DNA of 64,000 nucleotides, taken from the NCBI GenBank assembly GCA_026395055.1, contig JAPLZK010000001.1:17527-81526 (forward strand), in the 5' to 3' direction. This stretch comes from Candidatus Uhrbacteria bacterium. GTDB lineage: Bacteria; Patescibacteriota; Patescibacteriia; UBA9934; GWF2-40-263. The stretch's first letter is position 1; each line of letters begins with the position of its first letter. Below the pieces are notes generated by a model. It had not been told where the DNA came from. It was given only the letters and a program-made list of their open reading frames with translations, and ran no database searches. Position numbers and translations under genes: made by a program. Below, piece after piece: positions 13,973-41,923 of the stretch.

Positions 13973-15556
13973 TTACGCGGCAAGTTTTTGATTCGCCTTC
14001 TTTTCCAGAGCGACTCGTTGTTCTAAAGCTGCTTTTGCCTTATTCAACTCTCGTAATCGTTCAAATTCTTTTGCGAGAAATTTTATTTCTGGATCAACAG
14101 ATATGTCCCCCTGTTTTCTTTGTCGAATAAGAGATTCATATCTGGCCACCAATTCTTTTTTTGTTGGCACACCATTCGGAAACTCAGTTTGTTTCACAAT
14201 AGGCGCGACTTCTGGTTGCTGTTCCGGTTTTTGCTTCAATAATTCTTTTCCGAATCCCAATGCTCCTCTAAAAAATCTCAGTTCGCCTGCGATAGAAATA
14301 TCTCCAAGTGCCAACCGTTGTACAAGAATGTCATAACGCTCTTGTTGCTTCTCGATTGATAAACGGACCAAACGTTCTTTTGGCCAGATCCCCTTATGCT
14401 CTCCCAATCCTTTAAAAAATTCTGCGCGTGTCTGCTTTTTTTTAGACACTTCCGGTGTTACCACTTCTGTCACGACGCCGACTCCTTTGTTTTCTATTGT
14501 CTGAGCCTTGTCCTGAGAAGATTTCGTATGTTCTTTTTGAACAAGCAGCTTCTGCAGTTTATTTTCTAAATCGAATGTTGGAAGTGCTGCTTTCTTTTTC
14601 TTCGCGATTTTTAATTTTAATTCTAGTTCTTCCATGCGTTCTACATTTTCGGGATCAAAGACATTCTTCACGGAATTTTTAATTGTCTCTGCACCTTGAT
14701 CAACATAGCTTATCTTTGATGGCGAAACGCGTGACGCTGTACGTTGCATGGCCCCGTACTGAGCAGATAAAACTTCAACGAGCTTTGCAGCTTTTGGATT
14801 TCCACTTGCCTCAAGCGCGTGTGCATACGCAAGCTGACCCGCGAGCTGATCTACAATTTCCTTCATAATGGTTTGCCTGACTGGATGTTCTGCAAGAGCT
14901 GTTTGATTTCCTTGTACCCAAAGACGTGCAATATCAACAACATGTTGTTTTTCAAGAGCGAGAACAATTTTAGGAATAAATCGCTTTCGACCCTGAATAC
15001 TTTGATCTACCGTTTGAAAATACGTCATTTCTCCCAATTCCCCCCTATTGAGTTGCGAACGGATCTTTTCCAGTTTCAAACGAATAACCTGCCCTTTTCC
15101 GTGCGTGGCATCAATCGCAAACCCCATGTGTCTTAAGGCTCCATCCTCATTAAACTCTGTCACGAAATCAATGCCATTCGCATAGTCATCGTATTCACAG
15201 GTTTGTTGTGTATTGATGTTCGGCCCGAGCCATTCGTTCAATTCTATTTGTTCAATCACAATGGCTTCCAGGATCTTTCCCAATTGACGCATTTCTCCCA
15301 TTTCCGGATTCGCTGATCCGTGATCAAAAATACCACGAAGGCGCTCAACCTCTTTTGCCTGTGCTCTTAATTGTTTTTTTCCATAAACCCCCTCAAAATC
15401 CTCAACCTGAATCTGATCCGTCTCTGTCTCCAACGCTTTTTGATACGCAGCTTCAAGAACCACTCGATCACTCTCAAGTTCTTTTCCCTCTTTTCCTTTT
15501 TCCCTTGCAGCTTCCTTCGCCGCTTGAAAATGAGCCTCCTGACGAAATCGTTCCAT
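13973..15556 (-). CDS. hypothetical protein, paralog of 12983-13963 with K/E-rich coiled-coil C-terminal extension
   Basis: 527 aa; N-terminal ~270 aa homologous to the neighbour. Confidence 0.6.
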   Translation of the reverse strand: MERFRQEAHFQAAKEAAREKGKEGKELESDRVVLEAAYQKALETETDQIQVEDFEGVYGKKQLRAQAKEVERLRGIFDHGSANPEMGEMRQLGKILEAIVIEQIELNEWLGPNINTQQTCEYDDYANGIDFVTEFNEDGALRHMGFAIDATHGKGQVIRLKLEKIRSQLNRGELGEMTYFQTVDQSIQGRKRFIPKIVLALEKQHVVDIARLWVQGNQTALAEHPVRQTIMKEIVDQLAGQLAYAHALEASGNPKAAKLVEVLSAQYGAMQRTASRVSPSKISYVDQGAETIKNSVKNVFDPENVERMEELELKLKIAKKKKAALPTFDLENKLQKLLVQKEHTKSSQDKAQTIENKGVGVVTEVVTPEVSKKKQTRAEFFKGLGEHKGIWPKERLVRLSIEKQQERYDILVQRLALGDISIAGELRFFRGALGFGKELLKQKPEQQPEVAPIVKQTEFPNGVPTKKELVARYESLIRQRKQGDISVDPEIKFLAKEFERLRELNKAKAALEQRVALEKKANQKLAA

Positions 15557-15617: not shown

Positions 15618-15824
15618 CTATTTCTTTTTCCAAACCATTTTACTAAAGATAAAGATATAGAGTATTTCCAGAATTCCGACGGTATTGATTAGCAACAACG
15701 CCACAAACCAGCGTGCATCTTTCTTCTGCGCGGCTTTCCAAAGCGCAACACCTTTCCATGGAAGCGTCCAGATGGTGAGCGCTCCTAAAATCCAAACGGG
15801 TAAACCGTTTAAAACTTGGTACAT
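15618..15824 (-). CDS. small membrane protein
   Basis: 68 aa, two TM helices, Lys-rich C-terminus. Confidence 0.4.
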   Translation of the reverse strand: MYQVLNGLPVWILGALTIWTLPWKGVALWKAAQKKDARWFVALLLINTVGILEILYIFIFSKMVWKKK

Positions 15825-15833: not shown

Positions 15834-17090
15834 TTAAAAAAGGAATAAAGAAACTCCGGCTGCGAACATCACAATGGTTGCAAGAAGACCTAACACATTC
15901 GAAAGTTTTCCGTTTGTGTGTTTCCCCATGATTTTTTTATTATTTGAAATGAGCAAAATAAGTACAAGAAGAATTGGTGCAACGAGTCCATTCAACACCG
16001 CTGTGTAATACAACACTTTGAAGGGAGGAATGTTTAGGAAATTTACGAACAACCCAATAACCGTCGCAAGAATGATCACGCCATAAAATGCAGGAGCTTC
16101 ACGCCATTTCTTTGAGAGACCGCTTTTCCATCCAAATGCCTCTGCAATTGCATATGAAGCAGAACCCGTAAGAATAGGTACAGCAAGAAGTCCAACGCCC
16201 ATGATTCCGATCATAAACAGGAGCGACGCGAAATTTCCTGCGATTGGGCGCAGCGCTTGCGCTGCCTGTGTTGCTGTTTCAATGTGTGTGATTCCATTTG
16301 CTCCAAGTGTCGCAGCCGCTGTCACGATAATAAAGAACATCATGAGGTTAGAAAAGAACATGCCAATTCCAGTATCGATCCAAAGATCTTTGAAGTCGGA
16401 TTTCACAACGATCGGTTTTCCGATCCCGAATCCTAAAATTTTATGATGTTCAATTTCCTCTTCTACTTCTTCATCCGCTTGCCAGAAAAAAAGATACGGA
16501 GAAATGGTGGTTCCTAAAATTGCGACAATGTTCAGAATATACTCTTTGTTCCAAGAAAACGCGGGGGCAATCGTGGACCATGCAACAAGCATCCAGTCTT
16601 GATGAACTAAAAATGCGGCAGCAACGTAAGAAAGCAAGGAAAGCGTTAACACTTTTAGAAATTTTGCATACATTGGATACGGAACAAAAATTTGCAGAAG
16701 AACCGTTCCGACAGTAATCACAAAGAGCCACAACGCAAATGGAAGTCCGAAGAGTACTTGTGTCGTAGAAGCCATTGCTCCAAGATCCGCACCAACGTTA
16801 ATCGTGTTTGCAATAAACAAAAGCGCCACAGCAATCGCCAGAACTTTTTTGGAATAATATTTTCTGATCACTCCAGAAAGCCCCTCTCCTGTTACCGTTC
16901 CAATTCTTCCACACATTTCTTGCACGATAAGCATGAGCGGAAAAGAAAACAACGCTGTCCAGAGTTGGGTGTATCCAAATTGGGCTCCTGTTTGTGAGTA
17001 CGTGGCGATTCCAGATGGGTCATCGTCTGCGGCTCCGGTGATAAATCCTGGACCAAGGCGTTGCCACAGCGTTTTTTTCTTTTCGATCAT
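15834..17090 (-). CDS. mntH: NRAMP family divalent metal (Mn2+/Fe2+) transporter
   Basis: GPGFITGAADDDPSGIATYSQTGAQFGY Nramp signature; 11-12 TM helices. Start moved to MIEKKK because the track's upstream GTG lies inside a terminator hairpin. Confidence 0.8.
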   Translation of the reverse strand: MIEKKKTLWQRLGPGFITGAADDDPSGIATYSQTGAQFGYTQLWTALFSFPLMLIVQEMCGRIGTVTGEGLSGVIRKYYSKKVLAIAVALLFIANTINVGADLGAMASTTQVLFGLPFALWLFVITVGTVLLQIFVPYPMYAKFLKVLTLSLLSYVAAAFLVHQDWMLVAWSTIAPAFSWNKEYILNIVAILGTTISPYLFFWQADEEVEEEIEHHKILGFGIGKPIVVKSDFKDLWIDTGIGMFFSNLMMFFIIVTAAATLGANGITHIETATQAAQALRPIAGNFASLLFMIGIMGVGLLAVPILTGSASYAIAEAFGWKSGLSKKWREAPAFYGVIILATVIGLFVNFLNIPPFKVLYYTAVLNGLVAPILLVLILLISNNKKIMGKHTNGKLSNVLGLLATIVMFAAGVSLFLF

Positions 17091-17107: not shown

Positions 17108-17140
17108 AAAAAACCCTCACATGTGCGAGGGTTTTCGTTT
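17108..17140 (-). terminator. terminator of the reductase gene
   Basis: AAAACCCTCACATGTGCGAGGGTTTT hairpin with T-run. Confidence 0.55.
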
Positions 17141-18631
17141 TTAAAATCCCGGAAAATAATCTACCCGAATCTGTTTGCTTGGAACCCCCATGGATTTCAC
17201 CAACTTTACATAATTCTCAACCATCATCGGTGGGCCAGAGAAATAAAATGTTCTGGAAAGAAAATCGGGAACCTCTGCCTCAATCAGTTCTTTTGTTATG
17301 AACCCACTCTTTCCTTGCCATGCTGGAGATGGTTTCGCAACAACACAGCTTAAGCGTGCTCCAATCTGATTACAGATCTGATCAAATTCTGCTTTATAGG
17401 CACAATCGTTTTCTGTGTTGATGCAGCAGAACAACACAACGTCTCGTTTTTGATGCGTGGCCGCAAGCTCACGAATCATACTGCGAAACGGCGTGATTCC
17501 AATTCCTCCTGCAATCCAAACCATTTTCCGTGCTGGATCTTTTGGCAAAACGAAATCTCCGGCAAGATTTGAGGCAACAAGCTGATCTCCCGGCTTCATT
17601 TCAAGTAACTGTTGTTTAAACGTACTTGAATGCGCGCGATCAACCCGAACCCCGAGATGAACTTCATCATCAGATGGTGCGGATGCAATCGTAAAAAATC
17701 GACGATTTCCCCGTGAATCTGTTTTGTGAAGCGGAAGGGTCCACTCAAGATACTGCCCTGGATGAAACGCTAATTTTTTATCTGGCGTAAAGACGAAGTT
17801 GCAAACCTGTTCTGTTTCACACGTCATACTCTTAAACGTAAGACGTAAAACTTGTCTTGAACTCACAATATAGGCAAAGATATTTCCAATGAGCAGCGCA
17901 AGTTCTGGAGACATCACGAGTGGGCCCATGGCGAACATCACCATGAATAACACCCCAACTCCTGAACCAAAAATAATCTGATCGCGTTTCATGGCGGGTG
18001 CTGTTCGTGGTTCTGTGAGCATCATGGTTCCAAAAAAGACCAATGGCCAAGAAAGAAAAAGTGAGGAAACAGAAATACCTTGAAGCAAACCTGTTACGAT
18101 TGCCGCAACAGTGAATGCACCAACTTCCTCAAAACGTCTGATCTTTCTTACGACCATGAGTCCAAACACCAATGCAACGGGCAACAACCATGGTGTTGCC
18201 ACCCACCAAATCACCAAAGGGATTTGAAAAAGATCGAATAAAAATGCCGTGATTGCAATTGGGTTAAAGAGATGTTTTCCTCCAATCGCAAAAAGATATT
18301 TTGAGGCTTGCGCAACCAGTGCAACACAAGCGAGCATGAGTGCATTTTGCACGGTCAGCACGGTTGGATCAAATACGAAAAATAATAACAAGGCCGTAAT
18401 GAACATGGATTCCGCATTCATCGCTGCACGTGTTATTTTTGCAAAAAAGACATTTCCTGCAAATGATCCAAACAAAAGAATCACGAGTGCAAGCACCATG
18501 CTCACGACAGAAAAATGCACCTTACCGAACGCGGCAAGGATTATGGAATACCCTGCCTCTATGAAGAGTCCGTACAACATCAACCGATACATGGTGATGC
18601 TGTTTAAAAATTTATCCATAAACTTCATCAT
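17141..18631 (-). CDS. fusion protein: N-terminal RnfD/NqrB-like membrane domain + C-terminal FNR-like FAD/NAD(P)-binding reductase domain
   Basis: N-terminal GGKHLFNPIA and TEPRTAP resemble RnfD/NqrB NPFNPA and TDPVTSP blocks; C-terminal RRFFTIAS (RxYS FAD motif) and WIAGGIGITP (NAD(P) motif). Confidence 0.65.
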   Translation of the reverse strand: MMKFMDKFLNSITMYRLMLYGLFIEAGYSIILAAFGKVHFSVVSMVLALVILLFGSFAGNVFFAKITRAAMNAESMFITALLLFFVFDPTVLTVQNALMLACVALVAQASKYLFAIGGKHLFNPIAITAFLFDLFQIPLVIWWVATPWLLPVALVFGLMVVRKIRRFEEVGAFTVAAIVTGLLQGISVSSLFLSWPLVFFGTMMLTEPRTAPAMKRDQIIFGSGVGVLFMVMFAMGPLVMSPELALLIGNIFAYIVSSRQVLRLTFKSMTCETEQVCNFVFTPDKKLAFHPGQYLEWTLPLHKTDSRGNRRFFTIASAPSDDEVHLGVRVDRAHSSTFKQQLLEMKPGDQLVASNLAGDFVLPKDPARKMVWIAGGIGITPFRSMIRELAATHQKRDVVLFCCINTENDCAYKAEFDQICNQIGARLSCVVAKPSPAWQGKSGFITKELIEAEVPDFLSRTFYFSGPPMMVENYVKLVKSMGVPSKQIRVDYFPGF

Positions 18632-18643
18632 ATCTTTTTCCCT

Positions 18644-19513
18644 TTAGGTGATGAATAATTCCGCTGGAAAATCTTGAGACATTTTAAACGTGTATTCTGC
18701 GGAGACAATCAAGTACGCAAAATCAAATTCTTTCTGTAATACCTCTGGCTCCACAAAAAATAAACAGGTTGTGAGTGCGTCGGCGGTGCGTGCATTTTTT
18801 GCAATCACCCAAACAGCAGCAAGATGTTTTGGAGACGTGAGTGTGAACGGATCCATGATGTGATGAAATTGTTTCCATGCACGTCTGTTTCCTGCAGAGC
18901 CACAAATACTTTCATTTCCAATCTGTGCAACACCAATCACGGAGGTTGAGTCATTCGGGTGTTCAAGCCCAACACGAATCTTTTTTTCCGGAACATCTGC
19001 ATGCAGAATATCACCCCCTGCATTGATCGTAAATGCAGAAACCCCATTTCGTTGCAGTAAATCCCCGACAATATCAATCAAATATCCTTTTCCCGCCGCC
19101 CCAACATCAATAAGAACAGGTTGTTTAATAAGAAGTTTTGGAAATGCGTATTCCATTGCCAATTCCCAATGCATTGGTGAAGACAAGGATTTTGGCTCGA
19201 GAGAATATGTTGCATCATAGCCCGCATCCGATAACACATTTCCAATGAGAGGTGTTACGGATCCGTTCGTAAGCCGATACATTTTTTCATAAAGATCGAA
19301 CAGGGGTTTTGCATCGTCTGGCAAAACGTATTCTCCTGATTGTTTTGACATGCTCGCAATCAACGAGTCATCACGAAAACGCGAATAGTGTTTGTCGTAA
19401 ACAGCAATGCGCTTCTGTATCAATTTAAAAATATCCGATGCTTGCGAATCGGATATTTCGGTCAGGAGATCAATTTTCCAGTGTGTGCCAATGGCTTCAA
19501 ACTCCCAAGTCAT
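18644..19513 (-). CDS. apbE: FAD:protein FMN transferase (ApbE)
   Basis: GKGYLID and HIMDPFT motifs. Start taken at MTWEFEAIGTHW, whose ATG abuts the stop of the upstream FMN_bind gene. Confidence 0.85.
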   Translation of the reverse strand: MTWEFEAIGTHWKIDLLTEISDSQASDIFKLIQKRIAVYDKHYSRFRDDSLIASMSKQSGEYVLPDDAKPLFDLYEKMYRLTNGSVTPLIGNVLSDAGYDATYSLEPKSLSSPMHWELAMEYAFPKLLIKQPVLIDVGAAGKGYLIDIVGDLLQRNGVSAFTINAGGDILHADVPEKKIRVGLEHPNDSTSVIGVAQIGNESICGSAGNRRAWKQFHHIMDPFTLTSPKHLAAVWVIAKNARTADALTTCLFFVEPEVLQKEFDFAYLIVSAEYTFKMSQDFPAELFIT

Positions 19514-19514
19514 A

Positions 19515-20069
19515 TTATCTTTGTGCTTGCGCTTTGATTTTTGCAAGAGCATCCATAAATCCAATTGGGGTAAGAGATGATCCAGAAACAGTGTCAACTT
19601 GAACAGAATCAATTTTCATTCCAACAACAGCACTTACTTGTGTGGAAAAATAATTTTGCCAATTTTTGGATGTGCCGTTTCTTGCTTGTGGAGTAGCGCT
19701 GATTGCCGTAATGACATCATTTTTTAAGGTGAGCGATATACCAATGGTTTCTGGTCCTCCAGGAGCAACATAATTTCCGTTTGCGGAATAAGAACCATCT
19801 TTGTAGGTACTTTTTTGTGTTACAGGAGGAGTTGCTGTTGCGTCAGGGGTTGGAGCGGGTGTTGGCGTCTGTGTAGGTGAGGAGGTCGTTGTCTGTTCTG
19901 GTGCTGGAGCAGGGATCTGCATGGTTGGTGTTGTTGTAGCAGGTATTTGTGGTGGTTGGTCATCAAGCCCAGATCTTGCGGACATCATGAACGCGACGAG
20001 TCCGCCAAGGACCGCAATAATAACAACAAGGATAAGCCATTTTTGTGCAGGATTTTTTTGAGGTTCCAT
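19515..20069 (-). CDS. secreted/membrane-anchored FMN-binding domain protein (NqrC/RnfG/PplA-like)
   Basis: N-terminal TM/signal, Pro/Thr-rich linker, FMN_bind domain with DTVSGSSLT matching the ApbE flavinylation motif; start placed at MEPQKN. Confidence 0.7.
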   Translation of the reverse strand: MEPQKNPAQKWLILVVIIAVLGGLVAFMMSARSGLDDQPPQIPATTTPTMQIPAPAPEQTTTSSPTQTPTPAPTPDATATPPVTQKSTYKDGSYSANGNYVAPGGPETIGISLTLKNDVITAISATPQARNGTSKNWQNYFSTQVSAVVGMKIDSVQVDTVSGSSLTPIGFMDALAKIKAQAQR

Positions 20070-20195
20070 AAGATTAAATTTAGATGACACTAGTATAACG
20101 GCGAATACAGAGACTCGCAAGCATGCCGTTGCAACCATTTCATTGTTCAATGAATAGAAGATGATAGAATGCGACTATATTCTTGAATCCAATTT

Positions 20196-21833
20196 ATGCA
20201 TGCTGCTGAACTTTTTGTGAAATCTCTGGAACAAGAAGGGGTGAAATACGTTTTTGGTGTCCCTGGTGAAGAAAACCTTCGTTTTCTTGAAGCTTTGCGC
20301 ACGTCATCCATCCAATTCGTTCCAACGCGGCATGAACAGTCTGCGGGATTTATTGCTGCAACCATCGGAAGACTTACAGGAAAAACCGGAGTCGCTCTCT
20401 CAACCCTCGGACCTGGCGCAACAAACTTCATGACCGCTGCGGCATATGCGCAACTCGGCGGTATGCCCATGCTCATGATTACGGGGCAAAAACCGATTCG
20501 AAAAAGTAAACAAGGCGCATTTCAAATTATTGATGTGGTGAACATGATGCGTCCCGTTACCAAATTCACCAAACAACTTATTGATGGTGAGGCGGTAGCT
20601 GCAACCGTACGAGAAGCCTTTCGAGAAGCAGAGGAAGAGCGTCCAGGCGCTGTTCATATTGAACTTCCAGAAGATGTCGCAGATGACCTTGTAGAATCTC
20701 AACCACTGGAAGTCAAAAAAATTCGTCGACCAATTGCAGAAGAAAAAGCTATTTCACAAGCTGTTGAGCTTATTCAAAACGCCAAATCCCCTCTCCTCCT
20801 CATTGGAGCCGGAGCAAATCGTAAACTCACCGCAAAAATGTTGCGTGAGTTCATTGATAAAACAGGCATTCCATTTTTTGATACACAAATGGGAAAAGGT
20901 GTTGTAGATGAACGTCACGAGCTGTACGTCGGAACGGCTGCGTTATCTGCAAATGATTATGTGCATTGCGCGGTTGAGGCAGCAGACCTCATTATAAACG
21001 TCGGACATGATGTTGTAGAAAAGCCCCCATTCATCATGAAACGAAACGGACAAACGGTGATCCATATCAATTTCTATTCCGCGAAAATGGATCAAATTTA
21101 TTTTCCTCAACAAGAAGTCATTGGGGACATCGCAAATGCCATCTGGCAAATCAAAGAACGAATCACTCCGTCTTCACATTGGGACTTTTCCAAATTTCTG
21201 CACGCACGCAATCAGCTCTTATCCTATATTTCTTCTTCATCGATAGATCAATCCTTCCCCATTAAACCACAAACGCTTGTTGCAACCGTTCGTGAAACGC
21301 TTCCTTCTGACGGAATCGCCTGCCTTGATAACGGAATGTATAAACTCTGGTTTGCGCGACAATATCAAGCGCATGAGCCAAATACACTCCTTCTCGACAA
21401 TGCCCTTGCAACCATGGGCGCAGGTCTTCCCTCTGCAATTGCAGCCGCTATGTTATTTCCAGAGAAAAAAATTCTCGCAATCTGTGGCGACGGTGGATTC
21501 ATGATGAACTCCCAAGAAATGGAAACTGCCGTTAGACTTCGCCTCAACATCACGATTCTTTTATTAGATGACAATGGGTACGGCATGATCAAATGGAAAC
21601 AAACCGGCATGCAACTTCCAACCTTTGGCCTAGAATTCAAAAATCCAGATTTCGTGAAATATGCAGAAAGTTACGGAGCCTTTGGTCATGAATTAGAGAA
21701 GACCGAAGATCTGAAAGCCTTGATGAAAAAAACCTTTGCTGTTCCGGGCATTCACCTCATTCATATCCCCGTAGACTATTCCGAAAACGACAAAGTATTG
21801 AGCAAAGATTTAAAGAAACGTATTTGTTCCTAA
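20196..21833 (+). CDS. thiamine pyrophosphate-dependent acetolactate synthase (AlsS/IlvB family)
   Basis: 545 aa; TPP N-terminal pyrimidine-binding, central and C-terminal GDGG TPP-binding domains. Confidence 0.8.
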   Translation: MHAAELFVKSLEQEGVKYVFGVPGEENLRFLEALRTSSIQFVPTRHEQSAGFIAATIGRLTGKTGVALSTLGPGATNFMTAAAYAQLGGMPMLMITGQKPIRKSKQGAFQIIDVVNMMRPVTKFTKQLIDGEAVAATVREAFREAEEERPGAVHIELPEDVADDLVESQPLEVKKIRRPIAEEKAISQAVELIQNAKSPLLLIGAGANRKLTAKMLREFIDKTGIPFFDTQMGKGVVDERHELYVGTAALSANDYVHCAVEAADLIINVGHDVVEKPPFIMKRNGQTVIHINFYSAKMDQIYFPQQEVIGDIANAIWQIKERITPSSHWDFSKFLHARNQLLSYISSSSIDQSFPIKPQTLVATVRETLPSDGIACLDNGMYKLWFARQYQAHEPNTLLLDNALATMGAGLPSAIAAAMLFPEKKILAICGDGGFMMNSQEMETAVRLRLNITILLLDDNGYGMIKWKQTGMQLPTFGLEFKNPDFVKYAESYGAFGHELEKTEDLKALMKKTFAVPGIHLIHIPVDYSENDKVLSKDLKKRICS

Positions 21834-21839
21834 TTTCCT

Positions 21840-23204
21840 ATGTCTCTCACTTCCACCAATCCAACCACTGGAAACATGCTAAAGGAATATCCGGAACTCA
21901 CAGACACAGAGCTTGATGAAAAACTCACCCTCGCAGAATCGCAATTCGTGTCTTGGAAAAAAACATCTTTTGAAGAACGTGCAAATCTTTTTTTAACGCT
22001 CGCGGGATTATTCAAATCACGCGGAACAGAAATTGGAACACTTGCAACGCAGGAAATGGGAAAACCGCTCGCGCAAGCCATCGCAGAAGTAGAAAAATGT
22101 GCGAGCGTTTGTGAATATTATGCGCATCATGCCGCAACCATTCTTGCAGAAACTTCCATTGCATCTGATGCATCTGAAAGTTATGTCCGTTTTGATCCAA
22201 CAGGCGCTGTCCTTGCCGTCATGCCTTGGAATTTCCCCTTCTGGCAGGTTATGCGATTTGCGGCTCCTGCACTCATGGCGGGAAACGTTGGGCTTTTAAA
22301 ACACGCCTCAAATGTTCCGCAATGCTCCGAAGCTCTCGAAGATTTATTTTTGGAGGCGGGATTCCCTGTTGGGGTTTTTCAAAATCTCTTAATCGGTTCT
22401 GCAAAAGTTGAACGTGTCATTCGTCACAACATCGTTCAGGGCGTTGCGCTTACAGGCAGCGAATTTGCAGGAAGCAAGGTTGCCGCGCTCGCCGGCTCTC
22501 TCATTAAGAAGACCGTCTTAGAGCTTGGCGGAAGTGATCCATTCATCGTTCTTGAAGACGCCGACATCGAAACGACGGCCGCCGCTGCGGTGAAAGCACG
22601 CTTTCAAAACAACGGTCAAAGTTGTATTGCCGCAAAACGATTTATTATTGTAGACGCCGTTTATGATGCGTTCCTTTCTGCATTCAAAACAAATGTAGAA
22701 GCACTTGTCATTGGGGATCCAATGGATCTAACCACAGCGATTGGCCCAATGGTGAACAACTCCTCACGAGCAGAAATTGAAAAACAAGTTGCGGATTCCG
22801 TTGCGCTTGGGGCAGTTATTGAAACAGGTGGCGCATACCTTGAACGACCCGGATTTTATTTCGCTCCAACCATTCTTTCCAACGTGAAATCTGGAATGCC
22901 TGCGTATCATGATGAACTTTTTGGGCCGGTTGCATCCGTCATTCGAGTAAAAGATGCGGAAGAAGCCATCCACGTTGCAAACGATACCGTCTTTGGACTT
23001 GGTTCTAGCATTTGGACCAAAAATCTGGAGCTCGCAAAAGAACTGGCTCCACGCATTCGTGCGGGATCTGTCTTTGTGAATGGAATGGTGAAATCCGATG
23101 TGCGTCTTCCATTCGGAGGAACAGGAATTTCTGGATACGGACGAGAACTCTCAAGTTATGGAATCCTCGAGTTCGTAAATATCAAAACCGTGTGGGTGAA
23201 ATAA
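21840..23204 (+). CDS. NAD(P)-dependent succinate-semialdehyde dehydrogenase (aldehyde dehydrogenase family)
   Basis: 454 aa; ALDH catalytic Cys (GQSCIAAKR) and Glu (LELGG) motifs. Confidence 0.8.
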   Translation: MSLTSTNPTTGNMLKEYPELTDTELDEKLTLAESQFVSWKKTSFEERANLFLTLAGLFKSRGTEIGTLATQEMGKPLAQAIAEVEKCASVCEYYAHHAATILAETSIASDASESYVRFDPTGAVLAVMPWNFPFWQVMRFAAPALMAGNVGLLKHASNVPQCSEALEDLFLEAGFPVGVFQNLLIGSAKVERVIRHNIVQGVALTGSEFAGSKVAALAGSLIKKTVLELGGSDPFIVLEDADIETTAAAAVKARFQNNGQSCIAAKRFIIVDAVYDAFLSAFKTNVEALVIGDPMDLTTAIGPMVNNSSRAEIEKQVADSVALGAVIETGGAYLERPGFYFAPTILSNVKSGMPAYHDELFGPVASVIRVKDAEEAIHVANDTVFGLGSSIWTKNLELAKELAPRIRAGSVFVNGMVKSDVRLPFGGTGISGYGRELSSYGILEFVNIKTVWVK

Positions 23205-23205: not shown

Positions 23206-23250
23206 AAAAGACGACTCATACGTGGGTCGTCTTTTTTTATTTAGAATCCA
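23206..23250. terminator. bidirectional terminator
   Basis: AAAAAAGACGACTCATACGTGGGTCGTCTTTTTTT. Confidence 0.6.
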
Positions 23251-25757
23251 TGCTTACGGTAAAAAAGTCGTTTCCCAATTTCTACAATCAACAAATAGAC
23301 GAGGACAAGACCTATGATAAGGAGCACGATCGGGAATGGTAATGGGGAAAAGTGAAGCAATGTTCCGATTGGGGTGTATGGAATAATCCAACCAACAGCC
23401 AAACACGCAAACGTACTCAGGAACAACCACTTACTTGGACGACTTTGTAAAAATGGAATCTTACGCGTTCGAATAATATGAATCACGAGCGTTTGGGTCG
23501 CGAGCGACTCCATAAACCACCCTGTTTGAAACACAGATTCAGAAACATGAAAAATGGAAAACAATAAGATGAATGTTGCAAAGTCGAAGAGCGAACTGAT
23601 GAGTCCAAATGTATACATGAACTTTTTCAATCGTTTCAGATCCCATTTGCGTGGTGTACGAATCCAATCTTCATCTACGTTATCAGAAGAAATCGTGAGT
23701 TGAGAAACATCGTAAACAAAGTTGTTGAATAAAATTTGAATCGGTAACATCGGTAAGAATGGAAGATAAAACACAGCTCCAAGAACAGAAAACATATTTC
23801 CGAAGTTCGAAGAAAGTCCCATCATGATGTATTTCATGGTGTTTCCAAACGATCTTCGACCTTCAATCACCCCACGTACAATCGATTCCAATCCTTTTTG
23901 TGTCAAAATAATATCCGCTGATTCTTTTGCTACATCCACAGCTGTATTCACCGAAATTCCCACATCTGCCGTCTTAAGCGATGGTGCATCATTGATTCCG
24001 TCCCCCATGTAACCAACCACATGCCCACCTGATCGAAGCGCAATGATCACCCGATTCTTTTCATCTGGAGAAAATCGCGCAAAGATGGTTGTCTCTTCTG
24101 CACGTACTCTAAGCGCATCATCCGTCATGGTTGAAATTTCTTTTCCGAGCAAAATTCCTTTCATAGGAAGTCCGATATCTGTACAAACTTTTTTTGTAAC
24201 AAGTTCGTTGTCTCCCGTAATAATTTTCACTTCGATTCCGTATTGTTCCAATTCAACAAGCACGCCCTTTACATCTTTTTTTGCCGGATCGAGAAACGAC
24301 ACAAATCCCATAAACGTGAGATCGGATTCATCTTCTTTTGCGTATTGCTCCTTCACCTCAACGTGTGATCGAATGGCAACCGCAAGCACACGAAATCCAT
24401 CGGCACTGAGTGATTCATAATACGCGATGGCTTTCGCATACAGTTCTTTCCCGAGCACACCTACACGATCACCCTGATGATACATCGTGCATTTCGCTAG
24501 AACTTCTTCTGGCGCGCCTTTTGTAATAAGCGTGCGGCCCTCTGGTCCTTCCACCGCAACACTCATGAGCTTACGCACAAAGTCGAATGGAATTTCTTCC
24601 ACCTTTTTATAGGCAGAAATATCTTGTCCATCAAAATCAATCACGGCTTTATCAAGCGGATTCTTTACACCCGTTTGATGAAAGCTATTTAAATAGGTGT
24701 ACAACAAAACGCGATCATCTTTTGCTCCAAACCCATCTGTAAATGTCACGAGTTGAATTTTATCTTCTGTGAGCGTTCCTGTTTTATCTGTGCACAAGAT
24801 ATCCATGCTTCCAAAGTTTGGCATCGCGGATAATCGTTTTACGATCACCCCGTCTTTTGCCATGCGCTCAGATCCACGTGCCATGGTCACGGACATAATA
24901 ACGGGCAAAAGCTCTGGGGTCACTCCAACGGCAATCGCCACCGCAAACATGAAGGACTCAAGAATGTCACGATGCATGAGCGCTTGAACAAGAAAGATTG
25001 TCATCACCAAAAACAAAATAATTTTTGAGATGAAAAATCCAAAGTGATCGATTCCCAACTCAAAATCACTCTTGTCTTGTTTTTTCAAAAGTGTCTCCGC
25101 AATTTTTCCAAACTCGGTTTGTTTTCCTATGGCAAAAACAACCGCACGTGCCGTTCCACTTACAACAGAAGAGCCAAGAAATAAGACGTGACTTGCTTCA
25201 TCTGTTCCAAACCCGCACGGATATTTTTCTTTTGGAAAGGATTCTCCTGTGAGCGCTGATTGATTCACGAAAAAATCATCTGCTTCAAAGACAATGGCGT
25301 CTGCGGGAATCAAATCTCCGGAACTCAAAAAAAGAATATCCCCAACACATACCTCCACGATCTTTATTTCTTTTTTTTCTCCCGATCGAATGACGGTCGC
25401 CGTTGCACTTACCTTATCTTTTAATCGTTTTGCCGCATTCCCTGCACTGTGTTCTTCAAAGAAATCCAAACACACACTCGCAAGAATCATGATCGTTACA
25501 ATCATCGAATTTGTAACCTGACCGAAATAAAGGGAGATCGCCGTTGCCGAGATCAAAATCAAAATGAGCGGACTTTTAAAATGAGAAAGAAATTCTAAAA
25601 CGATTCCAATTTCTTTTTTGTCAGAGATGGAATTTGGTCCATCTGTTTGAAATCGATGAAACACCTCAATATCTACAAGACCTTCTTTTGAGGTTTTTAA
25701 ATCAGAAAAGAGTTGTTCCGTAGAACAGGTGGCGTATTTTTCAGAAAGTTGGGACAT
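23241..25757 (-). CDS. P-type cation-transporting ATPase (Mg2+/Ca2+ type)
   Basis: 838 aa; DKTGTLT phosphorylation site, TGDN, GDGINDAPSL, 10 TM helices. Confidence 0.9.
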   Translation of the reverse strand: MSQLSEKYATCSTEQLFSDLKTSKEGLVDIEVFHRFQTDGPNSISDKKEIGIVLEFLSHFKSPLILILISATAISLYFGQVTNSMIVTIMILASVCLDFFEEHSAGNAAKRLKDKVSATATVIRSGEKKEIKIVEVCVGDILFLSSGDLIPADAIVFEADDFFVNQSALTGESFPKEKYPCGFGTDEASHVLFLGSSVVSGTARAVVFAIGKQTEFGKIAETLLKKQDKSDFELGIDHFGFFISKIILFLVMTIFLVQALMHRDILESFMFAVAIAVGVTPELLPVIMSVTMARGSERMAKDGVIVKRLSAMPNFGSMDILCTDKTGTLTEDKIQLVTFTDGFGAKDDRVLLYTYLNSFHQTGVKNPLDKAVIDFDGQDISAYKKVEEIPFDFVRKLMSVAVEGPEGRTLITKGAPEEVLAKCTMYHQGDRVGVLGKELYAKAIAYYESLSADGFRVLAVAIRSHVEVKEQYAKEDESDLTFMGFVSFLDPAKKDVKGVLVELEQYGIEVKIITGDNELVTKKVCTDIGLPMKGILLGKEISTMTDDALRVRAEETTIFARFSPDEKNRVIIALRSGGHVVGYMGDGINDAPSLKTADVGISVNTAVDVAKESADIILTQKGLESIVRGVIEGRRSFGNTMKYIMMGLSSNFGNMFSVLGAVFYLPFLPMLPIQILFNNFVYDVSQLTISSDNVDEDWIRTPRKWDLKRLKKFMYTFGLISSLFDFATFILLFSIFHVSESVFQTGWFMESLATQTLVIHIIRTRKIPFLQSRPSKWLFLSTFACLAVGWIIPYTPIGTLLHFSPLPFPIVLLIIGLVLVYLLIVEIGKRLFYRKHGF

Positions 25758-25760
25758 AAA

Positions 25761-27011
25761 TTAACAATGTTCTCCAGCGAGATATCCTGTTGTCCAACAA
25801 AGTTGGAGAGAAAATCCCCCGGATGGGCGGCGAATATGTAAAAGATCGCCTGTCACATACAGATTATCATATTTCTTTGTCGCACACGTCTTTGGGTCAA
25901 TCTCGGAAAGAGGCAATCCGCCATCTGACACAATCGCAAGATCGTTTCCCATGAGTCCTTCGATGGAAATCGTGAGGGATTTCATGGTTTGCACAAGAGC
26001 TTTGCGATCTTCTTTCTTTAGGCTATGCACTTTCATCATCGGATCAATTGATTTGATTTGTGACAAGATTGCGTCTGACATGCCGTCAGGAGCGAATGCT
26101 TTAAACACATTTTTGAGAGATTTATTTTTGTTTGCATCAAAAAATTCAACGAGCTGTTCATCAAGTGCGCCATGATCTGTATCTGGAAACGCATCAACAA
26201 GTGCAGTCACTTCCCCTTCGTGAAGGGCATCAGCGATTTTCGAGGACGCATTCAAAATAGTAGGACCAGACAAACCAAAGTGCGTAAACAAAATACGTCC
26301 TTTCAAAACAAAGGATCGCATTCCATCTACGAAGAAGGTGATACGCGCTGGATCAAGAGAAATTCCGGACAATTTTTTCACCCATTTTTCCGTGACGGCA
26401 ATTGGGACGAGAGTTGGTGTTGGATTTTGGACTTCAAACCCGAGATCCTTCAACCATTTAAATCCGTCTCCGGTTGATCCGGTTTCTGGATGAGACATTC
26501 CACCGGTCGCAAGAATAAATGCGTCGGCACGGTATTCATTCTTTCCAACAAACACTTTTTCAATATGTCCGTCTTTACCAACAATCTTTGTCACAGGCGA
26601 ATTTGTTTTGATCTCGACCGCTCCGTCGACCATGTATTTTTCCAAAACCAAAAAGACATCGAATGCTTTCTGCGTTTTTGGAAACGCACGTTTGTGCGCT
26701 TCGATTACAAGCGGCAATCCCCGTGATGGGAAAAACTCGAACGTTTGTTTTACACCGAAGATGGAAAATGGCGAGTAGAGAAATTTCTCGGCAGCACCAT
26801 AATGTGGAAGTAAAACGTGCGGATCCTCTTCAGCATTCGTAATGTTACATCGCCCACCACCCGAGATTTTTAACTTCTCCCCGAGCGCTTTATTTTTCTC
26901 GAGCAACAAAACTTTTTTGCCCCGAGCGGCTGCGCGACCTGCACACATCATGCCAGAGGCTCCACCACCAATCACAATGACGTCGTACTTTTTTTGATTT
27001 TTTGTTGTCAT
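25761..27011 (-). CDS. HI0933-family NAD(P)/FAD-dependent flavoprotein (BaiN/aminoacetone oxidase-like)
   Basis: YDVIVIGGGASGMMCAG dinucleotide-binding start and conserved C-terminal GG motif. Confidence 0.75.
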   Translation of the reverse strand: MTTKNQKKYDVIVIGGGASGMMCAGRAAARGKKVLLLEKNKALGEKLKISGGGRCNITNAEEDPHVLLPHYGAAEKFLYSPFSIFGVKQTFEFFPSRGLPLVIEAHKRAFPKTQKAFDVFLVLEKYMVDGAVEIKTNSPVTKIVGKDGHIEKVFVGKNEYRADAFILATGGMSHPETGSTGDGFKWLKDLGFEVQNPTPTLVPIAVTEKWVKKLSGISLDPARITFFVDGMRSFVLKGRILFTHFGLSGPTILNASSKIADALHEGEVTALVDAFPDTDHGALDEQLVEFFDANKNKSLKNVFKAFAPDGMSDAILSQIKSIDPMMKVHSLKKEDRKALVQTMKSLTISIEGLMGNDLAIVSDGGLPLSEIDPKTCATKKYDNLYVTGDLLHIRRPSGGFSLQLCWTTGYLAGEHC

Positions 27012-30160: not shown

Positions 30161-31141
30161 TTACGGATGTTTTTGTTCAATATGTTTATCGATAAGCGCA
30201 ATAGCTTGTGCGAGTCGCTCCTTCTTTGTTCCTCGAACAACCACGAATGTTCGCCCCGTCTCCGCGAGTCGCTCCTCGAAACGACTATGCATCCAATGGC
30301 GAATGTGTTCCCCATCGCGCGTTCCATCTTGAACGAATGGAATTTCATCGCCGGTTAAAATATAGAGATCATGTTTCATTGTATTGGCCAGTTTCTCGAC
30401 TGCGGACGATCGCGATTCCATGTAGCGCTCATGCCAGACAGATGTTGCGAATGCATCTGTGTCGCAGATCAACACTTTGTTACACACTTCCGCAAGCGCG
30501 TCTTCCATTTTATTTTGCATCTCCGCGATGTGCGTAAATTCTTCACTCGTCCAATTCGTTCCATTTGCATCAAACAACTTTCCTTCCGCATAGGATCGTC
30601 CATATTCCGGAACCCATGTTGTCTGATAATGCGCTGCAAGATCTTTTGCGAGTGTTGTGGTCCCCGTCGACTCAGCACCAAGGATCACGATACGTTTTGC
30701 GTAGTATCCTCGAATAGGTGGCGAGAGGAACTCCCATTGTGCAAGCGGATTTTCCCGAACACGTGTTCCAGAAATTGGCACCGCTTCACGTGGGTGATCT
30801 ACGCAAATGTGTTTGCATCCGAGTGCAGCAGCGTAGGGGTCACCGTAGTCTTCCGATGTGAACACCGCGTCTGGCGCGCCTCCCAGAATTTCTTTTGTGC
30901 GGCCCGCCCAAGCAACGGAGTCATCATCGTCGAGGTCATCGACCGTGACATGAACATGTGCAGAAGGAAATAATTTTTGTATCCATGATGCGCGCAATGA
31001 TGCGTGCGGCACCTGCCCCGGCTTGTCGCACACAATAACCGTGAGCTGTTCACACTGTGCGAGCGCAGTTTCAATAAGAAACTCATGTCCTTTGTGTGGC
31101 GGATAGAATTTTCCAACAACAACCCCTTGAGTAAATTTCAT
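30161..31141 (-). CDS. nadR: bifunctional NMN adenylyltransferase / ribosylnicotinamide kinase (NadR without HTH)
   Basis: HxGH nucleotidyltransferase motif (YPPHKGH) plus C-terminal Walker A (GAESTGTTT); start abuts the pnuC stop. Confidence 0.8.
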   Translation of the reverse strand: MKFTQGVVVGKFYPPHKGHEFLIETALAQCEQLTVIVCDKPGQVPHASLRASWIQKLFPSAHVHVTVDDLDDDDSVAWAGRTKEILGGAPDAVFTSEDYGDPYAAALGCKHICVDHPREAVPISGTRVRENPLAQWEFLSPPIRGYYAKRIVILGAESTGTTTLAKDLAAHYQTTWVPEYGRSYAEGKLFDANGTNWTSEEFTHIAEMQNKMEDALAEVCNKVLICDTDAFATSVWHERYMESRSSAVEKLANTMKHDLYILTGDEIPFVQDGTRDGEHIRHWMHSRFEERLAETGRTFVVVRGTKKERLAQAIALIDKHIEQKHP

Positions 31142-31142
31142 A

Positions 31143-31796
31143 TTATTTTTGTAAAGAGAGATGTTTTGCATGTGTGCGTTTCCACTCCACGAGTCCTCGA
31201 ACACACATAAGGAAGAAGATGGCGTAAAGAAATGCTGTGAGGTACAAATCTTTGATGATGTAGAGATACACATAGATCACATCCACACTCATCCAGATAT
31301 ACCAATTCTCCATGCGTTTCTTTGTGAGGAGATATTGTGCAACAAGACTCATGGCTGTTGTAAGAGCATCAAGGAACGGTGCCGCATCGTGTGCGTGCAC
31401 AAGAATCGCAAACTCTGCCCATGTTCCAAGCGCAAGAAGAATCGCGAGCCAAATCCATTCACGACGTGGGGCCTTTGAAATGGGAAGCTCCGTCTTTTTT
31501 GCTCCCCCATACAACCACCAATACCAACCAAGGATACCAAGAATGATATAGACAATTTGTAATGCGGCATCTGCAAACAAAGAAGACTGCCAAAAAAGAA
31601 TAAGGAAAAACGCACTGTTCGCAATGCCAATAGGCCAATTCCAAATATTCTCTTTAACGGTAAGCCACACACACCAAGCTCCGGTCACAAATCCCAGTGT
31701 TTCCGTAAAACTAAAGGGGAGTTTCTGAAAATACGCCGCTGCGCTTAATCCAAGCGACGCAAGGATTCCGAGTCCGTACACAATTTTGTTGAACAT
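31143..31796 (-). CDS. pnuC: nicotinamide riboside transporter PnuC
   Basis: 217 aa, 7-8 TM helices, PnuC-like WxxW-rich helices; sits upstream of nadR. Confidence 0.75.
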   Translation of the reverse strand: MFNKIVYGLGILASLGLSAAAYFQKLPFSFTETLGFVTGAWCVWLTVKENIWNWPIGIANSAFFLILFWQSSLFADAALQIVYIILGILGWYWWLYGGAKKTELPISKAPRREWIWLAILLALGTWAEFAILVHAHDAAPFLDALTTAMSLVAQYLLTKKRMENWYIWMSVDVIYVYLYIIKDLYLTAFLYAIFFLMCVRGLVEWKRTHAKHLSLQK

Positions 31797-40065: not shown

Positions 40066-40629
40066 ATGAAAAAACTTGCCTACATCTTTCTCACCCTTGT
40101 TCTTCTTATCGCTCCGTCGATAAGCAGAGCAGCGTATGTGAGCGATAATTGTCCGGGTGACCCACTTTCCCTAACCGTACGTTGCCCAAAAGAAAGCGTG
40201 GGTTGGTTTATGCAAGGGATTACAAACGCCTGCGGAAATGCTGGCAACTGCACACTGGGAGACATGATGATCGTCACCGCAAACGTTGGAAACTTTGTTC
40301 TCAAAATTATTGCCGCGATCGTTTTGTTCATGTATGTCCTTGGTGGATTCTGGTATCTTATTTCCCACGGAGATCCAAAACTTGTTGATAAAGGGAAAAC
40401 GGCCTTACGCGTTTCAACCATAGGCTTACTGATCGTCATGTTTGCCTACCTTGGTGTTAAAACACTTTACGCCGCCTTAACAGGAACGACCGTTGATACA
40501 ACAACCGTCGTATGTGACGGAACAAATGATGGAAAACAGTGTGGAAAAATTAGTACATGTCAGCAAGGAGCTTGTTACATTGATGCAGGAACAACCGCAG
40601 ATGCCATAAAAAACTTTTTCAACAAATGA
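40066..40629 (+). CDS. Sec-secreted small protein with C-terminal double-TM hairpin (VirB2/TrbC-like topology), paralog 1
   Basis: Signal peptide, Cys-rich N-terminal region, conserved GGFxY(L/M)xxGGDxxKVxKxK block between two hydrophobic helices, Cys-rich tail. Confidence 0.6.
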   Translation: MKKLAYIFLTLVLLIAPSISRAAYVSDNCPGDPLSLTVRCPKESVGWFMQGITNACGNAGNCTLGDMMIVTANVGNFVLKIIAAIVLFMYVLGGFWYLISHGDPKLVDKGKTALRVSTIGLLIVMFAYLGVKTLYAALTGTTVDTTTVVCDGTNDGKQCGKISTCQQGACYIDAGTTADAIKNFFNK

Positions 40630-40630
40630 T

Positions 40631-40972
40631 ATGTCTTCTCAGCGCCTTAAGTATTTCTTTCTGAGCATTTGTCTGCTTCTCTTACCACAACTTGCTTCTG
40701 CCGAACTCATCAATCCTCTCGGTTCCGGAATCACCATTGAAAGTTTTATCGGTCGCCTCATTAAATTTCTCCTAGGACTTTCTGGATCGGTCGCGCTTCT
40801 CATGTTTGTCTGGGGAGGATTTCAATATCTATGGTCCGGAGGGGATCCAAAGAAGGTTGAAAAAGGAAAAGAGACGCTCAAGAATGCCGTCCTTGGAATC
40901 GTGATCATCTTTTTCGCCTACACGCTTGTAAATTCGCTCATCAAAGTTCTCTCAAGTGGAGCATTGACATAG
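40631..40972 (+). CDS. VirB2/TrbC-like small secreted membrane protein, paralog 2
   Basis: Same architecture and conserved motif (WGGFQYLWSGGDPKKVEKGK); 1-nt intergenic gap to paralog 1. Confidence 0.6.
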   Translation: MSSQRLKYFFLSICLLLLPQLASAELINPLGSGITIESFIGRLIKFLLGLSGSVALLMFVWGGFQYLWSGGDPKKVEKGKETLKNAVLGIVIIFFAYTLVNSLIKVLSSGALT

Positions 40973-41009
40973 GCATGTGGATATCTTTCCATATCAAAAA
41001 TTCCAAAAA

Positions 41010-41045
41010 AACGATAAAATATCTTTATCGTTTTTTCATATTCAA
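41010..41045 (+). terminator. terminator after paralog 2
   Basis: AAACGATAAA-ATATCT-TTATCGTTTTTT. Confidence 0.55.
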
Positions 41046-41097
41046 TTTTTTAACTCTGTCCGTTCGGGTTAGGCTTGCCTTTCCCCTACCAATCTTT

Positions 41098-41538
41098 ATG
41101 AACACGCTTTCAAAGAAACACCTTGGTTACGTTCTTGGTGCCGCCGTCGCCCTTTCACTCATGCTTCCAGCCGTTCTTGGACTTGCACATCCTGCACAAG
41201 CTGCAGCGTTAACTCAAGACCAGCTATTTGGCGGAACAGCAGGAAGCGATGCAACCTTTGCAGACACAGCAGGTCTCAGCACCGGAGGTTCAGGCGGACT
41301 TGTTGGAACCATCGGAGCCATCATTAAAACAGCCATGGGATTCCTGGGAATTATCGCGGTTATCATCATTCTTCTCGGAGGATTTAAATGGATGACTTCT
41401 GGTGGAAACGACGAAAAGGTTAAGAAAGCAAAACAACTCATCTTCCAAGGAATTATCGGACTTGTCATCGTCCTTTCTGCATACGCCATCGCAACATTCG
41501 TTATCTCAAACATCGTTACCGCAACAAGCGCAGGGTAA
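41098..41538 (+). CDS. VirB2/TrbC-like small secreted membrane protein, paralog 3
   Basis: Signal peptide ending AHPAQA, Ala/Gly/Thr-rich region, motif LGGFKWMTSGGNDEKVKKAK; start at MNTLSKK. Confidence 0.6.
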   Translation: MNTLSKKHLGYVLGAAVALSLMLPAVLGLAHPAQAAALTQDQLFGGTAGSDATFADTAGLSTGGSGGLVGTIGAIIKTAMGFLGIIAVIIILLGGFKWMTSGGNDEKVKKAKQLIFQGIIGLVIVLSAYAIATFVISNIVTATSAG

Positions 41539-41544
41539 TCAAAA

Positions 41545-41898: not shown

Positions 41899-41923
41899 AA
41901 TTTTAAAAAAACTATCTATCTAT

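Follow-up and report, generated by a model that had tools for sequence, protein, structure and literature searches.

Can three genes suffice to carry electrons from NAD(P)H to the outside of a cell membrane, and how would a flavin transferase that lacks a leader serve an exported substrate? Both questions are raised by a locus in a stretch of 64,000 nucleotides from a Candidatus Uhrbacteria bacterium (assembly GCA_026395055.1, contig JAPLZK010000001.1, positions 17,527 to 81,526), which we call the window and whose own numbering is used throughout. The locus, at 17141-20069 on the minus strand, encodes a small FMN_bind protein, an ApbE-type FAD:protein FMN transferase, and a 496-residue fusion of an RnfD/NqrB-like membrane domain with an FNR-type reductase domain. 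We consider it probable (about 0.7) that the FMN_bind protein and the fusion are the two subunits of an NQR/RNF-like, flavin-based transmembrane oxidoreductase and that ApbE is its flavin transferase, all three being encoded by one transcription unit. Judged by its domains, the set of three genes is a member of the published NQR/RNF-like system (Méheust et al. 2021; Huang et al. 2024).

Operon layout and gene boundaries

The list of open reading frames (ORFs) and their translations gives three co-directional genes in the order FMN_bind, ApbE, fusion, with intergenic gaps of 1 nt and 12 nt, respectively. The tightly packed arrangement and all of the motifs quoted in the original prediction are present: DTVSGSSLT (residues 159-167) in the FMN_bind protein, GKGYLID and HIMDPFT in ApbE, and GGKHLFNPIA, VATPW, TEPRTAP, IFGSGVG, RRFFTIAS and GGIGITP in the fusion. 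The elements of the unit, from 5' to 3', are as follows.

20092-20120, minus strand: promoter-like site from a consensus scan (-35 TTGCGA, 17 nt, -10 TATACT), ending 23 nt 5' of the FMN_bind start codon
19515-20069, minus strand: membrane-anchored FMN_bind subunit, NqrC/RnfG/PplA analogue, 184 residues; ATG at 20069 backed by homologue N-termini
19575-19595, minus strand: predicted flavinylation motif D159-T-V-S-G-S-S165, with the S165 codon (19575-19577) as the predicted FMN-phosphoester site
18644-19513, minus strand: ApbE FAD:protein FMN transferase, 289 residues, ATG at 19513 (PF02424, 129.9 bits)
17849-18631, minus strand: fusion protein, N-terminal RnfD/NqrB-fold domain with 10 transmembrane helices, residues 1-261
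17141-17848, minus strand: fusion protein, C-terminal FNR/NqrF-type FAD- and NAD(P)H-binding domain, residues 262-496 and stop codon (the gene in full is 17141-18631)
17109-17136, minus strand: intrinsic-terminator-like hairpin with a 12-bp stem and a T run, directly 3' of the fusion stop codon

The promoter-like site is a pattern match only, and the number of similar sites in the region is not above shuffle expectation. Together with the tight packing and the terminator, it makes the three genes look like one transcription unit. The identical three-gene order was assembled independently in two sequencing runs. The ApbE start at ATG 19513 is common to about 21 homologous loci and to gene calls on the two independent assemblies. 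A longer, TTG-initiated ApbE ORF (18644-19612) was considered as a possible source of a signal anchor and rejected, because it overlaps the conserved C-terminus of FMN_bind, relatives cannot be extended in this way (the ORF of locus L084 is not extendable upstream) and independent calls give 289 residues. In the divergent promoter region, a perfect 7-2-7 palindrome (TTCATTG-TT-CAATGAA, 20139-20154) was considered as a possible operator for a metal regulator and rejected; it does not exceed chance expectation, and none of the 87 related loci has it.

The fusion protein

The C-terminal domain is a FNR-type reductase, as had been proposed from its motifs. NAD_binding_1 (PF00175) matches with 59.9 bits (4.6e-16), the best PDB sequence match is the FAD/NAD domain of NqrF (2.9e-21), with NOX structures also matched, and Foldseek returned flavohaemoglobin, GcoB and NqrF at E 1e-16 to 1e-18. 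The FAD motif R-x-[YF]-[ST], the nucleotide motif G-G-I-G-x-T-P and the C-terminal aromatic residue are invariant across 54 homologues, the invariant positions being R310, R311, F313, T314, S317, G375, G376, G378, T380, P381 and a C-terminal D-Y-F-P-G-F. The NCBIfam nqrF model covers residues 340-493 only (72.9 bits, cut-off 295), and no ferredoxin domain is found on the NqrF-like half. PF01794, the bis-haem ferric-reductase domain, has no match in the fusion, and PF08030 reaches only 18 bits.

For the N-terminal half, the match to PF03116 (NQR2_RnfD_RnfE) is limited to the C-terminal third of the profile and scores 23.3 bits (cut-off 27.7). Since the RnfD/NqrB and FMN_bind assignments both have sub-threshold Pfam scores (PF04205 gives 19 bits for the FMN_bind protein, cut-off 22), both were tested independently. 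A 24-sequence profile of residues 1-262 has RnfD (8ahx_D) as its only meaningful PDB match (E 3e-4), and hhalign of the membrane domain with a small RnfD/NqrB profile gave 96-97% probability over 244-253 columns (E 4e-9 to 4e-11). This RnfD/NqrB profile was rebuilt from PDB alignments; a database query with E. coli RsxD yielded only enterobacterial sequences of 84-100% identity and was not usable for a diverse profile. The membrane domain has the RnfD fold. The original assignment of this polytopic domain to RnfD/NqrB is therefore upheld by profile-profile alignment and fold, although not by the PF03116 score. In the AlphaFold2 model, ten membrane helices are followed directly by the FNR domain in one confident chain (predicted template-modelling score, pTM, 0.81).

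The mean number of Lys and Arg residues per loop in 54 sequences is 1.3, 0.2, 0.8, 0.1, 2.1, 0.02, 3.1, 0.6, 0.4, 0.1 and 2.6, from the N- to the C-terminus. This alternation is as expected of a fusion with both termini inside, and the FNR domain is predicted to be cytoplasmic. With the same topology, the conserved K-H-x-F-N-P and T-E-P-x-T-x-P loops are predicted to face the cytoplasm and the W-W-V-A-T146 segment to face outside.

A covalent FMN in the membrane domain, which the original prediction had placed in the electron path, is unsupported. No ApbE recognition motif precedes T146 (in VATPW), the sequence being V-I-W-W-V-A-T with no D-x-x-[ST]-G-A. Its column varies, with Thr or Ser in 48/54 relatives and Asn or Ala in 6/54. 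The hhalign pairing of T146-P147 with T187-P188 of E. coli RsxD, where T187 is the flavinylated residue, has negligible posterior confidence; in an alternative manual register, taken from the confident C-terminal anchor, WWV is the start of the next helix (W220-Q-W-V in RsxD). According to a passage in Huang et al. (2024; PMC11334425), the flavinylation site of NqrB/RnfD is not conserved in the NQR/RNF-like family.

The FMN_bind subunit and its predicted flavinylation motif

The FMN_bind protein consists of an N-in signal anchor (residues 11-31), a Pro/Thr-rich linker and a C-terminal FMN_bind domain (residues ~92-184). Seven of 10 members of its clade match PF04205 at E<0.01, and the clade profile aligns with the canonical SGAT-type FMN_bind partners of other fusion genes (hhalign, probability 97.1%, E 5.6e-11). 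These canonical partners in turn match solved FMN-binding domains (8p2a, 6.6e-23; 3o6u, 6.5e-7). In the 54 window ORFs, no sequence other than D159-T-V-S-G-S-S165 fits D-x-x-[ST]-G-[AS]-[ST]. The motif lies 20 residues before the C-terminus; its last residue, S165, does not vary within the clade and falls in the same alignment column as the acceptor Thr of S-G-A-T in the canonical partners. The FMN_bind domain first read from the sequence is upheld by the clade profile, with S165 as its predicted flavinylation site. The published ApbE motif is D-x-x-[S/T]-G-A-[S/T], and reported ApbEs prefer Thr as the acceptor (PMC12052999); the window motif departs from this consensus at position 6, with Ser instead of Ala.

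The anchor region has a net-positive N-tail, one hydrophobic helix and an acidic or neutral flank, followed by the Pro/Thr-rich linker. This charge distribution indicates an N-in/C-out protein with its domain outside. The earlier description of the protein as secreted is imprecise, as the signal anchor looks uncleaved.

An ApbE without an export signal

The second gene was correctly recognized as ApbE. Its PF02424 score (129.9 bits) is far above the cut-off of 25.6, and the protein matches 13 solved ApbE/Ftp chains at E<1e-5. The window ApbE, which starts MTWEFEAIGTHW, has neither a signal peptide nor a lipobox, a point that the original prediction did not mention. The match to the PF02424 profile starts near residue 9, and residue 6 is paired with residue 20 of 3pnd_A, a construct without a leader. 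The same is true of the fusion-adjacent ApbE in about 21 related loci from both of the clades described below (loci from L002-L030 and L082-L088), where neither feature was found and the ApbE fold sets in by about residue 10.

ApbEs are typically lipoproteins that are exported, and the Salmonella enzyme cannot do without its periplasmic location (PMC12052999). The same source describes cytoplasmic ApbEs only for cytoplasmic substrates, with one present in Klebsiella, and reports that ApbE accepts 7-residue tags at protein termini. In the screen of Méheust et al. (2021; PMC8238504), a signal peptide on just one target gene per cluster was enough, so that clusters with a leaderless ApbE would not have been filtered out. 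The lack of a leader complicates a simple picture of flavinylation outside the cell. Possible resolutions are flavinylation of the near-C-terminal tag before Sec export, a cytoplasmic FMN_bind domain, or an unrecognized export route for ApbE.

A published class and its related loci

Méheust et al. (2021, eLife 10:e66878; PMC8238504) defined NQR/RNF-like systems as flavinylation-associated clusters with an NqrB/RnfD-homologous membrane domain fused to a PF00175 domain. They reported 127 such clusters, with VIT1 in six, and proposed unidirectional transfer from NAD(P)H to the outside. The class is reported mainly from Actinobacteria and the candidate phyla radiation (PMC8238504, PMC11334425). 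Huang et al. (2024, mSystems 9:e00375-24; PMC11334425) presented an AlphaFold-multimer model of the two-subunit complex of Ktedonobacter racemifer, in which the small subunit is extracytosolic and has its FMN site at the flavin pocket of the membrane subunit, and suggested that its covalent FMN samples a non-covalent flavin pocket of the membrane subunit.

The window locus has the same RnfD/NqrB-like membrane domain fused to a PF00175 domain. Flavinylation clusters were recognized by ApbE and/or FMN_bind within five genes and at least one signal peptide; here both genes lie immediately upstream and FMN_bind carries a signal anchor. A Pfam scan of the 54 window ORFs turned up no further rnf/nqr subunits and neither cytochromes nor quinone enzymes, in agreement with the original prediction. 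More than 100 full-length fusion homologues of 480-510 residues share the junction, the nearest named one being from Candidatus Uhrbacteria (67% identity). The membrane domain alone finds 1,027 representative clusters (50% identity) at E<=1e-3, most of them of fusion length, and 221 at <=1e-30. Given a published class and about 1,000 clusters, the description of the module as an unusual redox outlet has to be withdrawn.

Full-length fusion genes are found in Patescibacteria, Chloroflexota, Actinomycetota and Alphaproteobacteria, and the order small FMN_bind, ApbE, fusion is kept in most of 30 related loci from these four groups. A tblastn search with the window ApbE and FMN_bind missed divergent partners, all of the second clade below, which were recovered by ORF extraction. 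The partner protein and ApbE co-vary in two sub-clades. Clade A, with the window, Saccharibacteria and actinobacterial loci, has the motif V-S-G-S-S-L-T-P-x-G-F and an ApbE of ~290 residues starting F-E-A-I-G-T-x-W; clade B has the canonical D-[IM]-[IV]-[ST]-G-A-[ST] and an ApbE of ~246 residues. The S-G-S-S-type motif is present in L002, L003 (as S-S-S-S), L028, L030, L082, L084, L085 and L087.

Neighboring genes and a possible link to metal transport

The genes on either side of the unit include two transporters.

15834-17090, minus strand: Nramp-family divalent-metal (Mn2+/Fe2+) transporter (PF01566, 284 bits; NF037982 above cut-off), a candidate functional partner of the unit
15618-15824, minus strand: DUF5652 small membrane protein (PF18893, 75.4 bits), following Nramp also in L083, L084 and L088
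15591-15611: terminator after the DUF5652 gene
23241-25757, minus strand: Mg2+-type P-type ATPase (TIGR01524, 866.8 bits, cut-off 610.75)

The Nramp gene is directly downstream of the fusion gene in relatives of 67-72% identity and also in L004; in L082, L083, L084 and L088 it holds this position with gaps of 16-50 nt. The order in this lineage is HI0933-like flavoprotein, Mg-type P-type ATPase, FMN_bind, ApbE, fusion, Nramp and DUF5652. The P-type ATPase gene is immediately upstream of the FMN_bind gene in relatives; in the window and its identical contigs the two are parted by an inserted plus-strand pair (20196-23204) encoding an acetolactate-synthase-like thiamine pyrophosphate enzyme (PRK08322, 862 bits) and an aldehyde dehydrogenase that resembles NADP-dependent succinate-semialdehyde dehydrogenase. 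The insertion is also present in L088 and L089 and absent from the Uhrbacteria relatives L082-L084. In a wider survey of 108 flanking ORFs from 26 loci, the recurrent families were generic (ABC transporters, two-component regulators), with VIT1 in 2 loci and Nramp in 1.

Further observations were made around the triad. The P-type ATPase and the HI0933-like/aminoacetone-oxidase-family flavoprotein of the window (23241-27011, minus strand) are syntenic with the flavin module in relatives, and P-type ATPases also occur near the fusion gene in L006, L011, L016 and L027. In L087 (8065-10470), a distant relative, genes for glucose-6-phosphate dehydrogenase and 6-phosphogluconate dehydrogenase come after the triad; both enzymes generate NADPH, a hint that NADPH may be the donor in this locus. 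The next gene after the Nramp-DUF5652 unit of the window (13973-15556, minus strand) encodes a Lys/Glu-rich protein of 527 residues without a Pfam match.

Proposed mechanism and alternatives

The analysis shows the order and boundaries of the genes, the identities of domains and folds, the predicted topology, the motif alignment, the conservation of the triad and the lack of other rnf/nqr parts in the window. From these features we infer which cofactors are bound, which way the electrons run, what accepts them and where flavinylation takes place. NAD(P)H would reduce FAD in the cytoplasmic FNR/NqrF-type domain of the fusion, and the electrons would pass to one or more non-covalent flavins in the 10-helix RnfD/NqrB-fold domain. 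The membrane step would correspond to the short flavin-to-flavin path of NqrB in Na+-NQR, used in reverse. The next carrier would be an FMN bound by a phosphoester to Ser165 of the membrane-anchored, outward-facing FMN_bind subunit, where it would be installed by ApbE within the variant motif D-T-V-S-G-S-S, and from this FMN the electrons would reach an extracytoplasmic acceptor. The logic of the path originally put forward, from NAD(P)H through FAD and membrane flavin(s) to a flavinylated extracytoplasmic FMN_bind domain, matches the published proposals (PMC8238504, PMC11334425).

Several points weigh against this mechanism. Both PF03116 and PF04205 are under their Pfam gathering thresholds for the window proteins themselves. 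The flavin content of the membrane domain is taken purely from the analogy with NqrB; in the 54-sequence alignment the domain has no conserved Cys or His able to hold a metal center, no His being fully invariant and H120 being conserved in at least 90% of the sequences. In the motif, Ser takes the place of the Ala that precedes the acceptor, and the acceptor is itself a Ser. An ApbE that lacks a signal peptide, here and in about 21 loci, leaves flavinylation outside the cell unexplained. A strong terminator lies between the fusion gene and Nramp in the window, and neighborhoods are variable beyond the core triad, which makes the link to iron lineage-specific and circumstantial. In the literature searched, we found no biochemical study of any NQR/RNF-like member.

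The leading candidate for the acceptor in this lineage is Fe(III) or another reducible metal or chelate, for uptake via Nramp; it is favored because a divalent-metal importer is the conserved next gene, and we hold it tentatively, at rather less than even odds. As the main alternative, the same carriers could form a catabolic electron sink of a fermentative cell, in which flavin-based extracellular transfer would re-oxidize NAD(P)H at the expense of soluble flavins, quinones, humics, host-derived acceptors or O2. Most related loci have the core triad without a metal transporter, an NADPH-producing dehydrogenase pair adjoins the triad in L087, the window has PnuC and NadR-like salvage genes and no respiratory genes in 64 kb, and the logic parallels extracellular electron transfer by PplA/FmnB of Listeria (PMC9973259). 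We nevertheless regard a sink as somewhat unlikely, as Nramp is conserved immediately downstream in this lineage, with VIT1 found elsewhere (PMC8238504), the FMN_bind subunit, with one flavin and a short linker, is no multi-flavin "wire", and neither quinone biosynthesis nor EetAB-like genes were seen in the window.

A different explanation concerns the side of the membrane on which FMN is attached. A leaderless ApbE in the cytoplasm may flavinylate the D-x-x-S-G-S-S tag before or during Sec export, or FMN_bind may lie at the cytoplasmic face and shuttle between the FNR and membrane domains, the S-G-S-S motif and the ApbE clade having co-evolved. Both the charge bias of the anchor and the Pro/Thr linker point to an FMN_bind domain outside the membrane, the model of Huang et al. 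is extracytosolic (PMC11334425), the Salmonella ApbE needs the periplasm (PMC12052999), and Sec export of a flavinylated chain is undemonstrated, so that we consider this explanation unlikely even though ApbE has no leader in any related locus examined. Other points in its favor are that 7-residue terminal tags are modifiable by ApbE and that Klebsiella has a cytoplasmic ApbE (PMC12052999), that the motif is 20 residues from the C-terminus, and that a minimal cell would be spared an FAD exporter. If it were true, a covalent extracytoplasmic flavoprotein would be made without exporting FAD or ApbE, a new biogenesis route suiting minimal single-membrane cells. Coupling of NAD(P)H oxidation to Na+ or H+ translocation by the RnfD/NqrB-like domain, as in a stripped-down Rnf or Nqr pump, is highly improbable because the RnfA/E or NqrD/E core is missing from the window; RnfB/C and NqrA are likewise absent from it, and the proposed electron flow is one-way across the membrane, not semicircular (PMC8238504), with no acceptor returning electrons to the cytoplasm. 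As for a fusion created by mis-joining of an NqrF/FNR gene and an RnfD gene, by assembly or frameshift, we rule it out for practical purposes. The locus is identical in the assemblies of two separate sequencing runs, the junction is shared by more than 100 full-length homologues, the ~1,000 clusters are mostly of fusion length, and the AlphaFold2 model is a single chain with pTM 0.81.

Other genes of the window

In its other genes, the window looks like DNA of a reduced Patescibacterium close to the origin of replication. The dnaN gene adjoins dnaA (55780-58580, minus strand) and the GC skew changes sign at ~56 kb, so that the window probably spans the origin. A PnuC nicotinamide-mononucleotide transporter gene overlaps that of a NadR-like protein (AAA_28 and a weak cytidylyltransferase match; 30161-31796, minus strand); these form an NAD salvage pair, and the organism appears to depend on imported precursors. 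At 47487-51177 (minus strand), a NifS-type cysteine desulfurase and a NifU with a BFD-like 2Fe-2S domain adjoin a Pyr_redox_2/Rubredoxin_C flavoprotein. NifS and NifU serve Fe-S assembly and show that the cell has a demand for iron. The flavoprotein (47487-48734), the only Pyr_redox_2 protein in the window and remote from the triad, resembles ferredoxin or rubredoxin reductase.

Four consecutive small proteins resembling type IV secretion system pilins (TrbC/VirB2-like) are encoded at 40066-42328 on the plus strand, after a solute-binding protein gene. The segment 42000-47300 has a GC content of 0.49-0.54, compared with ~0.44 elsewhere, and ORFs without a Pfam match, including that of an 822-residue polytopic membrane protein (44757-47225); it may have been acquired and may be linked to the pilin cluster. 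A PBP1 gene is also in the window.

Significance

Bacteria of the candidate phyla radiation have almost no recognizable respiratory machinery, and a self-contained flavin conduit from NAD(P)H to the outside is one of the few redox outlets that they encode. Since the conduit adjoins a metal importer, it may explain the supply of Fe2+ or Mn2+ for Fe-S proteins, for which NifS and NifU are encoded in the same window. The class has so far been described only computationally, and its basic picture in the literature is unchanged by this locus. What the locus adds is a well-bounded three-gene operon, the candidate acceptor S165, a variant motif and a conserved Nramp partner. Along with the question of the leaderless ApbE, these features open the published model to a direct test by heterologous co-expression.

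Comparison with known systems

The ferric reductases of the NOX/FRE and MsrQ-like type (S. pneumoniae NOX, PDB 8qq7) also combine a polytopic membrane domain with a cytoplasmic FAD/NAD(P)H FNR domain and send electrons outward. The window fusion differs from them in an unrelated membrane domain of RnfD fold, which has no bis-haem His ligands and no PF01794 match, and its carriers are presumed to be flavins instead of haems. Extracellular electron transfer in Listeria (Ndh2/EetA/EetB/DmkA/PplA/FmnB) likewise draws on NADH in a single-membrane cell and has as its last protein-bound carrier a surface-anchored FMN_bind protein flavinylated by an ApbE, FmnB. In the window, an RnfD-like domain fused to FNR would take the place of Ndh2, demethylmenaquinone and EetAB, the FMN_bind protein has one such domain and not two, and ApbE is not a lipoprotein. 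The EetA/B and Dmk families were not found in the window; only the PplA-like and FmnB-like functions are present.

Among the 54 window ORFs, the NqrA, C, D and E families were not found, so that the six-subunit set of Na+-NQR (PDB 7xk3, 8a1t) is not present, and no 2Fe-2S ferredoxin domain or evident quinone site is seen. The ~35-60-residue loop with the flavinylated Thr is absent from the NqrB-like part, and the B-like and F-like parts form one polypeptide. Electrons in Na+-NQR flow from the FMN of NqrC to that of NqrB and then to riboflavin, whereas the flow in the window system is predicted to be opposite, one-way outward. From the Rnf complex (PDB 8ahx, 7zc6), the window differs in having no ferredoxin or Fe-S module and no D-G-x-[ST]-x-A-T motif, and in its sub-threshold PF03116 score. 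The RnfA, B, C, E and G families were likewise not found among these ORFs, and related loci carry only the triad.

The closest likeness is with the NQR/RNF-like systems, for example that of Ktedonobacter racemifer. Passages on the class in PMC8238504 and PMC11334425 contain no discussion of the missing export signal of ApbE. The window differs in belonging to the S-G-S-S and not the S-G-A-T sub-clade, in its distinct ~290-residue ApbE, and in having Nramp and not VIT1 as the neighbor. Shared features are the RnfD/NqrB-PF00175 fusion, the small NqrC/RnfG-like FMN_bind subunit and ApbE in one cluster, a membrane domain that appears to lack the canonical flavinylation site, an occasional link to Fe2+ transporters, and the same phyla, namely the candidate phyla radiation, Actinobacteria and Chloroflexota.

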